This document shows, piece after piece, positions 4,367 through 7,074 of a stretch of 21,103 bases of DNA (positions within the stretch are counted from its first letter, which is position 1; every line of letters begins with the position of its first letter). The stretch is taken from the IMG/VR virus record IMGVR_UViG_2547132281_000013, positions 1 to 21,103 of that record; one strand, 5' to 3'. This DNA comes from a virus (Duplodnaviria; Heunggongvirae; Uroviricota; Caudoviricetes). Position numbers and translations under genes: made by a program. Below the pieces are notes generated by a model, which was given only the letters and a program-made list of their open reading frames with translations, did no database searches and was not told where the DNA came from.

Positions 4367-4431
4367 AATAAGTCCTCACTATATAAAGATATTCAGTGAT
4401 GAGATAAATAATCAGTTTATTAAGAACGATA

Positions 4432-4794
4432 TTAACGACCTGCTGCGCGGAGTTTTCCGTCAGGTTCACCGGCAAGAGTCAGTAATTGTCCCTGGTCTTC
4501 CTGCAGAATAGTCAGGCGACCACCGCGATCGACATACATTGGCGTTTCGGTGGTGTCTTCTTCGGAAATTTTCCCGCGGTTAGTCGGGCGAACATATGAG
4601 AGTTTGTGTTTGATTTTCACACGGTTCTCATCAAACGGTTCGATTTCCAGATTGAGTGAGACCTTCCCTTTGGTTTTCGTGTTCATCACACCGGAAGCGA
4701 CTTCACTGAGAACTGCGCCGATTTTGGTTTCAAATACGCCGCCGTCCAGCTCCCCGATAAATGCCTGCACATCAGTACTGCGTTCGCTAGCCAT
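4432..4794 (-). CDS. yfdP: YfdP-like prophage protein
   Basis: Within ORF 4432-5112 the coding-like part begins at the internal ATG at 4794 (MASERSTDVQAFIGELDGG..., 120 aa), which has GAGGAG 9 nt upstream. The upstream extension is Arg/Cys-rich and not protein-like. Confidence 0.5.
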   Translation of the reverse strand: MASERSTDVQAFIGELDGGVFETKIGAVLSEVASGVMNTKTKGKVSLNLEIEPFDENRVKIKHKLSYVRPTNRGKISEEDTTETPMYVDRGGRLTILQEDQGQLLTLAGEPDGKLRAAGR

Positions 4795-4930
4795 TTTGCT
4801 GCTCCTCATCATATCGACCCTGCAAGGCCGATTAGTTTCTCCACAAAACAGAGAAGAACACCTGCGGTGGCAGCCGCCCGGATGGATTGGGTTATGAGCC
4901 CGTCGTCCGGTGATGCTCTTCTCTGTTTTG

Positions 4931-4977
4931 TAAAAAGAGCGGTACCAGCCGGAAGCAAGGGTACAAACTGGTACCGC
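4931..4977 (-). terminator. tL-like hairpin followed by a T-run on the minus strand
   Basis: 10-bp perfect inverted repeat GCGGTACCAG / CTGGTACCGC (4939-4948 and 4968-4977) with a 19-nt loop. On the minus transcript it is followed immediately by UCUUUUUA. Confidence 0.35.
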
Positions 4978-5194
4978 CAGGACTACACACAGCATAAAGT
5001 TGTGGTGCCGGGTGCCTCCCGGTGCCTGGCGAAGGTTGCACACCAGACGGGTGGGTATCCACAGAAGGTCGACTGTCAGCCTCAACCTTAACCCGCGTGC
5101 GCTGAGCCGCATTCACCACAACGCTAAGGATTCTCTCTGGTTGAAAATACTTAGCTGTTATGTGCCTGCTTTTAGCCACATCAGGCGAGGTGGA

Positions 5195-5248
5195 CCTGGT
5201 TATTCCCCAACAACAAGGATTCGGTTAATCTGGTTATCCCCAACAACG
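5195..5248 (+). repeat. imperfect direct repeat (CTGGTTAT[T]CCCCAACAAC, two copies) just upstream of ORF 5263
   Basis: Copies at about 5195-5215 and 5230-5248, ending 15 bp before the RBS (AAGGAAAAG) of the 144-aa ORF. Confidence 0.4.
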
Positions 5249-5262
5249 CAAAAGGAAAAGAA

Positions 5263-5697
5263 ATGTCCGGTAATATCTACACGCTGTACAAATCCCACTG
5301 TGAAAATGTTGGAAAGTATCGGGGCATTGAAATCAGTGGGGTAGTGTCATCAGTCGAAATAAGCAGAGTGGAATCAAGGGCAACATTACTTACTCTTCTG
5401 GACCTTGTCTTACATGAGCACCGGAAGAAATTCGGCACTCCCTATAATCAGTTGAATGGGAAAAAGGCTCTGGTTCACCTTATTCTGATGAAGCATCACT
5501 GGATGCCAAAACAGATTAATGAGATGAAATTCGATGAACTTCTTCTTTCAATTCAGGATGAACTCACACTTGATAAAATAAGCGTAACCGCCCAGAAATT
5601 TTTAGATTATCGAGACTGGAGATCACAAATTCATCACTTTGATGATTTTGACGAAAATGAATGGGAGCCTAATTTGTCTGCACAATATCTAAAGTAA
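5263..5697 (+). CDS. hypothetical protein, 144 aa; moron-like gene antisense to the leftward early operon
   Basis: ATG with AAGGAAAAG RBS. No transmembrane segment and no recognised domain. Its 3' end overlaps the convergent small ORF at 5669-5875 by 29 bp. Confidence 0.45.
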   Translation: MSGNIYTLYKSHCENVGKYRGIEISGVVSSVEISRVESRATLLTLLDLVLHEHRKKFGTPYNQLNGKKALVHLILMKHHWMPKQINEMKFDELLLSIQDELTLDKISVTAQKFLDYRDWRSQIHHFDDFDENEWEPNLSAQYLK

Positions 5698-5875
5698 CAT
5701 CCTGTGATAAAACCGTGATTTCCTGATCCAGTTTTTTTAAGGAGTCTATTGTTTCCTGTCGATAAGACAGCACTTCACGAAGCTGGTTTATAGCTGCCAG
5801 CTTCTTTGTCATCCACTCGTAAATTTCCTCATTTGTGTATCCGGGCGCGACGATTTTTGGTTCTTTTTTGTGCAT
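5669..5875 (-). CDS. small hypothetical protein, 68 aa; first gene of the leftward (PL-like) operon
   Basis: The ORF track begins at a TTG, but the likely start is the ATG at 5875 (MHKKEPKIV...), which has GAGGAGG 7 nt upstream. Not Arg-rich, so not an obvious N-type antiterminator. Confidence 0.4.
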   Translation of the reverse strand: MHKKEPKIVAPGYTNEEIYEWMTKKLAAINQLREVLSYRQETIDSLKKLDQEITVLSQDVTLDIVQTN

Positions 5876-5935
5876 TTCACACCTCCTCAAGTTATCAGTT
5901 ACTTGTTGATGGGGACCAGATTGTTAAAGAGCTAA

Positions 5936-5956
5936 GCGCCCGAAAGGGCGTTTTTT
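5936..5956 (+). terminator. putative rho-independent terminator on the plus strand
   Basis: GCGCCC-GAAA-GGGCG followed by TTTTTT. Confidence 0.4.
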
Positions 5957-6025
5957 GTTGCTAACGAATCATCCTGGACTTCATATGCCTCAGGCGGCTA
6001 CTTCGTGGGCGTCCTGCCTGTTCTT

Positions 6026-6062
6026 TGTTTCGTTTGGGTACATTATGTATCTCAAGGGTACA
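6026..6062. promoter_or_regulatory. OL-like operator pair
   Basis: TGTTT-N7-GTACA (6026-6042) and TGTAT-N7-GTACA (6046-6062). The GGGTACATT motif occurs twice. Same half-site family as the cI/cro intergenic operators. Confidence 0.45.
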
Positions 6063-6073
6063 TTGTCAAGTAT

Positions 6074-6096
6074 AAAAAAACCTGCCGAAGCAGGTT
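6074..6096 (-). terminator. rho-independent terminator downstream of the repressor gene
   Basis: Minus-strand stem AACCTGC-TTCG-GCAGGTT followed by a run of seven T; lies 13 bp past the cI stop. Confidence 0.5.
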
Positions 6097-6108
6097 CATA
6101 GACATTGA

Positions 6109-6783
6109 TTAGGCTTTGATTTTGTATCTTCTTGGTTTTCCTGAGAAAATCACTGTACCAATTATAGAGCAATTACCGTTGATCTTAATGTAAGGCTCAG
6201 GCCAATTTGGGTTTAACGCTTTGAGATAACGCTGTGTCCCATCTTCTATCAACCTTTTGAAGGTGGTTTCACCTGTATCGTGCATCAATGCAATAACATC
6301 GTCACCGTGGCAGGCAGGTACTTCAGGATCGACAAAAATCATGTCTCCCGGGCGGTACTCATCAATCATTGAATCACCTATCACCCGCAAGATATAAGTC
6401 ATTTCCCCACAGGGTACAGGGCAGGGATACGTTTCTGCTGTGCTCAAATCAACCTCAGAATATCCAACTTCTTTCCATGCTCCGGCCTGTACCCATGATA
6501 TGACAGGGACTAATGTGATTTGTTTATTAGTGATTGAAACATCAGGTTTTTTTGTGATGTTCGTTGTCTGGTGTTCTTGATCGAGCCATCCGATAGGCAG
6601 GTCGAAACATTTTTCGATGTGTCGTGCCATGCTGTCACCGATATTTTTAGTAGCACCATCTCCCATAAACCTGCTGGTCTGGGTTGGCTCGCGATCAATC
6701 ATAGTGGCAAAGGAAGAATTCCCGCCAACACCATCTCTCAGTTTTCTGGCGTTAGACCGCCGGATGTCATGGATTGTTTTCAT
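6109..6783 (-). CDS. cI: CI-like prophage repressor (N-terminal HTH, C-terminal S24 LexA-type autopeptidase)
   Basis: 224 aa. The C-terminal domain carries the S24 catalytic Ser (RVIGDSM) and a downstream Lys (TTFKRL). Divergent from a Cro-like gene across an operator-bearing intergenic region. Confidence 0.85.
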   Translation of the reverse strand: MKTIHDIRRSNARKLRDGVGGNSSFATMIDREPTQTSRFMGDGATKNIGDSMARHIEKCFDLPIGWLDQEHQTTNITKKPDVSITNKQITLVPVISWVQAGAWKEVGYSEVDLSTAETYPCPVPCGEMTYILRVIGDSMIDEYRPGDMIFVDPEVPACHGDDVIALMHDTGETTFKRLIEDGTQRYLKALNPNWPEPYIKINGNCSIIGTVIFSGKPRRYKIKA

Positions 6784-6873
6784 AACGAAATTAAAACCCT
6801 TGTACCGTTAAGGTACAAGTGTCTTGAAGGTTCATTTCAATCATGTAATATGTACACCGGAGGTACATATTGT
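6784..6873. promoter_or_regulatory. divergent immunity control region (OR/PR/PRM-like)
   Basis: Two dyad operators TGTAC-N7-GTACA at 6801-6817 (within the 21-bp palindrome CTTGTACCGTTAAGGTACAAG) and 6851-6867. Candidate rightward promoter: -35 TTGAAG (6824-6829), 16-bp spacer, -10 TAATAT (6846-6851). The second operator overlaps the -10 and the start site. Confidence 0.55.
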
Positions 6874-7074
6874 ATGAAAGCGTATTGGGACTCTTTAACC
6901 AAAGAACAGCAGGGCGAGTTGGCCGGAAAAGTTGGCTCAACACCTGGCTACTTACGGCTGGTTTTCAATGGCTATAAAAAAGCCAGTTTTGTGCTGGCTA
7001 AAAAACTTGAGCAATGCACGTCAGGTGCAATTACGAAATCTGACTTAAGACCGGATATCTATCCGAAAGATTAG
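6874..7074 (+). CDS. cro: Cro-like HTH regulator
   Basis: 66 aa from the ATG at 6874, with GGAGG 10 nt upstream. The longer ORF-track frame (6571-) runs antisense into cI and is rejected. Confidence 0.6.
   Translation: MKAYWDSLTKEQQGELAGKVGSTPGYLRLVFNGYKKASFVLAKKLEQCTSGAITKSDLRPDIYPKD

Follow-up and report, generated by a model that had tools for sequence, protein, structure and literature searches.

Members of the ECs1072 and YdfC protein families form a recurrent convergent gene cassette with a fixed orientation rule, which we describe here as new, together with the observation that the larger of the two genes has been missed in several public phage annotations. The cassette was characterised in a 21,103 nt stretch of DNA from a caudovirus record (IMGVR_UViG_2547132281_000013, positions 1 to 21,103; hereafter the window), where a 144-aa gene on the plus strand meets a 68-aa gene on the minus strand. 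A sequence-only reading of the window had described this convergent pair with its 29 bp overlap, a good ribosome binding site for the 144-aa ORF and a GAGGAGG sequence for the 68-aa gene, and all of these were recovered (Table 1). Both ORFs are genuine genes, and the pair is an exchangeable AT-rich accessory cassette of ~0.75 kb in a swap-prone slot. Our best reading, to which we would give an even chance, is that of an accessory gene pair under excludon-type control, with reciprocal expression of the two genes in lysogeny and lysis.

Table 1. Features of the convergent gene pair and its surroundings, in window positions
Feature	Position	Strand	Remarks
yfdQ (DUF2303) and yfdP	left end of gene order	minus	
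ORF-free GC-rich stretch	between yfdP and the 144-aa/68-aa pair		
STnc100-like sRNA element (RF02076)	4930..5152	minus	downstream of the cassette in the PL direction
Conserved upstream block	5160..5247		TGCCTG..CTTTT..CCAC.TCAGGC..GGTGG plus direct repeat; directly upstream of the 144-aa gene
Shine-Dalgarno-like AAGGA	5252..5256	plus	6 nt before the ATG of the 144-aa gene
144-aa gene, ECs1072-family phage-associated protein	5263..5697	plus	ATG start
3′-end overlap of the two genes	5669..5697	both	29 bp
68-aa gene, YdfC-family small protein (PHROG 1744)	5669..5875	minus	first gene of the leftward operon
Second terminator-like hairpin	5779..5804	plus	dG ~-15 kcal/mol, then TTTGTCAT; inside the 68-aa coding sequence
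Shine-Dalgarno GAGGAGG	5882..5888	minus	6 nt before the ATG of the 68-aa gene
boxA GCTCTTTAACAA	5921..5932	minus	exact rrn-type; PL leader, between the PL-like promoter and the 68-aa gene
Intrinsic terminator for the plus transcript	5934..5959	plus	8-bp stem (5934-5953), GAAA loop, T6
PL-like promoter	6042..6069	minus	TTGACA-16-CATAAT, σ70-like; between the cI terminator and the 68-aa gene
cI terminator (ymfK-type)	6078..6097	minus	
cI repressor, LexA-like, ymfK type	6109-6783	minus	
cro (ymfT), then CII-like gene (ymfL)	beyond cI in gene order		

This region of the window corresponds to the immunity and early-left part of an SfIV/SfV/e14-like temperate phage integrated in E. coli, and a 1.7-kb query around the gene pair showed 98% identity to Shigella phage SfIV and 99.9% identity to a RefSeq E. 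coli chromosome. The PL-like promoter is overlapped by GGTACA operator-like motifs, which recur in the cI-cro intergenic region, and the promoter region is almost base-for-base that of the K-12 e14 promoter driving ymfJ. Since this promoter sits between the cI terminator and the 68-aa gene, and is nearly identical to the SOS/CI-type promoter of e14, the 68-aa gene represents the first gene of a repressor-controlled leftward operon, directly after the promoter (6069..6042), as the sequence-only reading had proposed. A 14 nt sequence, GGGTACATTGTCAA, is repeated exactly at 1037-1050 and 6056-6069; the copy at 6056-6069 takes in the −35 box of the PL-like promoter together with an operator-like motif, and the copy at 1037-1050 is located directly upstream of a leftward gene start near 1036, where a second promoter under repressor control may exist in the int/xis region. 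The STnc100-like element gave a full-length match to the RF02076 model (44.6 bits, E=4.8e-8), which is below the gathering score of 47 bits, and the STnc100 copies beside the cassette in Klebsiella phages scored 107–108 bits at the same relative position. The corresponding sequence is represented as a frameshifted pseudogene in RefSeq and as parts of two ORFs in SfIV, and Qin-type loci contain DicF and a partial STnc100-like element after ydfC.

The product of the 144-aa gene matched the NCBIfam model of the ECs1072 family (NF033230) with 155.1 bits against a curated cut-off of 70, aligning residues 4–144 to profile positions 2–142 of 142; it also corresponds to PHROG 5286, and RefSeq names the identical gene as ECs1072 family too. 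An exhaustive profile search yielded relatives in 77 clusters at 50% identity, almost all ~145–155 aa in length, and the conserved positions of the family include R54, G66, A69, H72 and W134. The dN/dS of the gene between diverged loci was 0.07–0.15, and an AlphaFold2 model showed an all-helical domain (pLDDT 93.7, pTM 0.88). An alternative is that the 144-aa ORF is spurious, occurring antisense to the operon by chance of reading frame and not being a gene, which would fit its lack of annotation in ST64B and several Klebsiella phage records, as well as the outcome of a promoter search upstream of the gene, where neither scanning nor inspection by eye gave a convincing σ70 or σ54 promoter. However, the constant length over 77 clusters, the low dN/dS, the confidence of the model and the coverage by both an NCBIfam and a PHROG family all contradict this alternative, which has next to no chance of being correct and is effectively refuted already because of the conservation data. 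The copies without annotation in the GenBank records of ST64B (L006 2345-2779) and of the Klebsiella phages KPP5665-2 and ST846-OXA48phi9.2 (L008/L009 2318-2791) are nevertheless intact and under purifying selection.

The 68-aa protein matched PHROG 1744 over its full length (E=5.8e-34, residues 1–68 of 68), and aligned end to end (residues 1–66) with annotated YdfC-family proteins of Qin-type prophages at 38–39% identity. A profile search returned 225 relatives of 79–93 aa from across the Enterobacterales, and the dN/dS between diverged loci was 0.2–0.4, so that both genes of the pair are under purifying selection. The protein has an N-terminal motif, EPxI(V)APGYTxEExYEWM, followed by one long helix (residues 15–60), and its AlphaFold2 model (pLDDT 88.8) consists of an extended N-terminal peptide and one 46-residue helix. 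The function of YdfC is not known (bioRxiv 10.1101/2025.03.22.644768). The gene contains an A7/T7 homopolymer at 5732-5738, and many database variants of the protein diverge at exactly this point, via frameshifts or sequencing errors.

The leader preceding the 68-aa gene contains the boxA sequence 4 nt past a minus-strand hairpin (CGCCC-UUUC-GGGCG, 5921-5953 region), which is the reverse complement of the plus-strand terminator. The boxA 12-mer GCTCTTTAACAA occurs once in the window, and identical copies are present in PhiR29_1 and in L182 (4336..4325), an unrelated phage locus. Hairpin and boxA together suggest a nutL-like site for NusB/S10-dependent antitermination, without an N gene nearby. 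The 68-aa gene comes first after this nut-like hairpin and perfect boxA, which is the position of N in lambdoid phages, and its product could thus be envisaged as an N-like antiterminator acting at the hairpin-boxA just upstream, with the 144-aa ORF being incidental. We rejected the protein as an N analogue and consider such a role highly improbable, as it is acidic (pI 5.3) and lacks an arginine-rich motif, and as the first gene of the slot is not conserved, with sister phages that have >97% identical flanks carrying another first gene (ymfJ, orf33) or none (PhiR29_1); furthermore, the YdfC-type family sits after Q/tR′ in other phages. The earlier description of the region as N-proximal needs correction, with no N gene being present.

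The terminator that had been noted downstream of the 144-aa gene was found as an 8-bp stem with GAAA loop, and is shared with PhiR29_1, in which the plus-strand cargo gene is different. Its location beyond the small gene agrees with the sequence-only proposal that the plus transcript runs fully antisense to that gene, but the second hairpin inside the 68-aa coding sequence may stop transcription earlier, and because of these two hairpins the plus transcript may end either ~100 nt or ~260 nt past the 144-aa stop codon. Hairpins at similar positions to 5779..5804 were also detected in ST64B and the Klebsiella phages, and the 3′ overlap of the two genes in other lineages ranged from 71 to 110 bp. 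At the other end of the 144-aa gene, the conserved part of the upstream block spans ~5160-5196, and a direct repeat, CTGGTTAT(T)CCCCAACAAC, is located at 5196-5214 and 5230-5247. The block also precedes other plus-strand cargo, namely ymfI in e14, the PhiR29_1 gene, a 171-aa gene in O157 prophages and the ECs1072-like gene of L182, and it probably supplies the promoter or 5′ region of the cargo gene, although a consensus promoter is not visible. The block has the potential for nested or pseudoknotted pairing of GCCTG with CAGGC and CCAC with GTGG, and L182 has a second copy of it directly upstream of its boxA.

Comparison with related phages delimited the slot occupied by the pair. SfV shares positions 4400-5193 and 5963-6900 of the window, e14 shares 4805-5193 and 5960-6900, PhiR29_1 shares 4400-5247 and 5916-6900, and Ayreon shares 4400-4979 and 6012-6900, which places the left junctions at 4979-5247 and the right junctions at 5916-6012. 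In all four phages other cargo takes the place of the cassette: SfV has orf33 there, e14 has ymfI/ymfJ, and PhiR29_1 has a plus-strand gene of another kind. The 144-aa gene had been called moron-like, and this description is supported by its own terminator (5934-5959), the deviant GC content of the insert (40.7%, versus 48.8% for the whole window) and the presence or absence of the cassette among phages with >97% identical flanks. At least 80% of the 5140-5960 region of the window was present in 409 of 5426 complete E. coli genomes (~7.5%), and part of this region, mostly the upstream block, in 2196 of the 5426. The same antisense position is taken by an alternative plus-strand cargo gene (~165–171 aa, with a coiled-coil N-terminal part and a Cys-rich C-terminal part) in O157:H7 Rac/Qin-like prophages (L189 2609-3124) and in PhiR29_1 (L005 ~2330-2880); the 242-aa gene annotated in PhiR29_1 probably has its start placed too far upstream, within the STnc100-like element. 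The e14 genes ymfI and ymfJ, SfV orf33, the PhiR29_1 cargo and the antisense ORF of Qin were tested as hidden homologues of the pair, and were not homologous.

The convergent overlapping pair was present in 11 of the 18 lineages sampled, down to ~25–30% identity. Two of these 11 were represented by many loci, the SfIV-type prophages by 85 and the Klebsiella phages by 74, and the others were ST64B, a further pair of viral contigs, Erwinia, Xenorhabdus, Enterobacter, two species of Serratia and the contig L179. A further lineage had both genes adjacent with an extra ORF in between, and the large gene was without partner in the other six (two chromosomal contexts, a site beside an IS21 element, the metagenomic contig L010, and the prophages L182 and L190). 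Counted by locus, 168 of the 175 scanned large-gene loci had the convergent partner, with one cut by the contig end and six lacking it. The lineages included extra samples taken from the large-gene side (L179, which is an NCBI genome-assembly contig, Erwinia L180/181, L183, L182 and L190), and others from the partner side (Xenorhabdus L185, Enterobacter L186 and Serratia fonticola L187), all three of which contained the large gene; a scan of genome contigs for related loci gave only three loci. The unannotated 144-aa ORF of ST64B is 31% identical to that of the window and converges, with an overlap of 71 bp, on sb50, the C-terminal part of which is a YdfC-like sequence. Similarly, the Klebsiella phages have the same convergent arrangement with an overlap of 95 bp and no annotation for the large ORF. 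YdfC was also found without the large gene, in Qin-type prophages.

Two settings were observed for the cassette. In the window, L179, L180, L183 and L185 it lies immediately to the left of cI, at the start of the leftward operon, and in ST64B, Klebsiella, Enterobacter and Serratia it is found between the genes for the Q antiterminator and holin. The small gene was in every case co-directional with the lytic operon, and the large gene opposed to it; in a Klebsiella phage, the small gene comes after a minus-strand terminator resembling tR′. Relatives of the cassette are spread through prophages of Klebsiella, Salmonella, Citrobacter, Serratia, Enterobacter, Erwinia and Xenorhabdus. In two related prophages, a phage-encoded CsrA homologue directly adjoins the cassette (L179, 2-169; Xenorhabdus L185, 3714-3911).

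The pairwise identities of the two proteins correlated (r=0.81, 12 lineages), showing that the two genes diverged together, which is equally expected from simple linkage. This mirror-tree correlation could thus arise if the two genes were unrelated neighbours, consisting of an ordinary small early-operon protein of the YdfC family and an independent moron inserted behind it, co-inherited by adjacency only and with a 3′ overlap that has no regulatory role. Such an explanation would also accommodate the occurrence of either family without the other, and the nature of the slot as a recombination hot spot with many alternative cargos. It does not readily account for the maintenance of orientation and 3′ overlap over such low levels of identity, the appearance of the pair as a unit in both the PL-proximal and the Q-holin operon, or the recovery of the large gene in 3/3 partner-side samples, and we regard mere adjacency as somewhat unlikely.

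Excludon-type control, our preferred reading, is likely since the two predicted transcription units converge and overlap. The 68-aa YdfC-family gene, read from the repressor-controlled leftward promoter, would be silent in the lysogen and expressed early after induction, and the 144-aa gene, placed head-on in the leftward operon with its own upstream region and terminator, could be expressed while the lytic promoter is off. Lytic transcription, from PL or PR′, would collide with transcription of the 144-aa gene and produce antisense RNA to its mRNA, resulting in silencing on induction. The plus-strand transcript would in turn run antisense to the small-gene mRNA, wholly or in part, and may damp leaky PL expression in the lysogen. 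Such antisense coupling of the pair is plausible. Additionally, the small protein, with its single coiled-coil-type helix and conserved N-terminal peptide, may act on the 144-aa protein or its target, the conserved pairing being what would suggest an action on the large protein. What we infer for the pair from this arrangement is that the 144-aa gene is expressed in the lysogen, that the two genes are regulated reciprocally, and that the two proteins may be linked.

Indirect backing for this reading of the window pair may come, by analogy, from the behaviour of e14 and of the ECs1072 protein itself. The ymfI-ymfJ genes of e14 were classed as a convergent excludon from RNA-seq (PMC12288877), and ymfJ was strongly induced late in the SOS response with little change for ymfI (PMC11002266), the late induction of ymfJ being as expected because of CI-type control. 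ECs1072, the namesake of the large-gene family, was detectable in uninduced cultures of O157 Sakai (PMC2241611). Against the excludon-type reading stand the scan of the plus strand, which gave no σ70 consensus match for the 144-aa gene, the facultative pairing, a co-divergence that linkage alone could produce, and the searches for functional homologues, defence-system models and fold matches, which gave none for either protein.

Scans with Pfam and PADLOC gave no match for either protein, and a sequence-profile search of the PDB returned zero matches with the 144-aa protein and only designed or natural coiled coils with the 68-aa protein. The model of the 144-aa protein had no structural match in the libraries searched, and no defence-system model, functional homologue or fold match was obtained for either protein from PADLOC, Pfam, NCBIfam, the PDB and the structure libraries. 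An extra NCBIfam match consisted of a weak CheZ coiled-coil hit only, and was dismissed as compositional. The statement of the sequence-only reading that neither product has a recognisable domain was therefore correct for Pfam and PADLOC, but both proteins do match established families (NF033230/PHROG 5286 and PHROG 1744/YdfC). The remote-homology and structure prediction it had pointed to produced these family matches and two models, but no fold match or functional homologue. We did not find a functional study of the ECs1072 or YdfC families in the literature, and to our knowledge there is no exclusion phenotype known for ECs1072-family proteins.

An exclusion or toxin-antitoxin-like module had nonetheless been put forward from the sequence, in which a 144-aa protein made in the lysogen would harm an infecting phage or the cell, and the 68-aa protein, made upon the lytic switch of the resident phage, would neutralise it. 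Lambdoid phages hold exclusion genes such as sieB and rex in the PL-type region, the expression logic implied by the orientation fits, and the small partner is a single helix, as is typical of binding peptides; the conserved pairing and co-divergence agree with a module as well, in an indirect manner. On the other hand, neither a PADLOC defence model nor a toxin or antitoxin Pfam family was matched, the layout is convergent, whereas type II systems are bicistronic operons, the large gene is stably maintained without its partner in six of the 18 lineages, plain chromosomal sites included, and YdfC stands alone in Qin-type prophages. We consider a toxin-antitoxin, abortive-infection or exclusion module improbable, and a strict relationship of the toxin-antitoxin or immunity kind is unlikely, given that chromosomal sites and two prophages maintain the large gene by itself and that Qin has YdfC but not the large gene. 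A more speculative extension, which we hold to be doubtful, is that the ECs1072 protein and the YdfC-like helix peptide form an unrecognised two-component prophage module. The 144-aa protein, whose fold had no match in the libraries searched, would then be produced during lysogeny, with incoming phage or host physiology as its target, and the resident phage would switch it off on induction by head-on transcription with antisense RNA and by binding of the small protein, made early or late; the module would hop between PL-proximal and Q-holin 'safe harbours' via the flanking STnc100-like sequences.

Returning to excludon-type control, the head-on orientation, conserved in those two lytic operons that are switched most strongly, predicts that expression of the cassette is wired to the lysogeny/lysis decision. 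If there is a phenotype, be it exclusion, defence or host modulation, the large gene would represent a new family with an unmatched fold, and the pair a clear-cut natural case of excludon control in phages. Even without one, the locus remains a well-defined cargo slot, of use in the annotation and engineering of the prophages that carry it.

Among known systems, the e14 pair ymfI/ymfJ of K-12 fills the very same slot, bordered by the conserved upstream block on one side and by a PL/OL/cI region of 97.7% identity on the other, and is also a convergent pair (63 bp 3′ overlap) with the minus-strand gene first after PL, but has no sequence similarity to either protein of the window pair. YdfC of the Qin ydfABC-dicF-dicB operon aligns with the 68-aa protein along its full length at the identity given above, and both genes are promoter-proximal in a repressor-controlled leftward operon with an sRNA after them (DicF or STnc100-like); Qin-type loci differ in the absence of an ECs1072-family gene opposite ydfC, where there is a low-quality antisense ORF only. 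The window pair resembles excludons in having convergent genes with overlapping 3′ ends, one strongly switched promoter and a terminator beyond the partner gene, although it is known from ORFs and predicted terminators, whereas excludons are defined by overlapping transcripts, convergent or divergent, with mutually exclusive expression. With type II toxin-antitoxin systems it shares the format of two small-protein genes in a cassette that moves among prophages, the smaller protein probably being a binding peptide; it differs in that its genes are convergent and not co-transcribed, in the absence of a toxin or antitoxin domain in Pfam, PADLOC, PDB sequence and fold searches, and in the often solitary large gene, so that co-occurrence is not obligate (6/18 lineages without partner). 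In the sieB-esc-sas superinfection-exclusion system of P22 and lambda, an accessory gene in the PL region is expressed by the prophage, and the resident phage is spared on lytic growth via antisense RNA and a small escape product, Esc, which is an internal product of sieB. The embedding of an accessory gene in the PL region is common to both, as would be the logic of antisense RNA combined with a small lytic-phase product, but there is no homology and Esc is not a convergent gene. The closest relatives of the window pair are thus the ECs1072 and YdfC families by sequence, e14 ymfI/ymfJ and more generally the excludons by architecture, and P22 sieB/esc/sas by logic.
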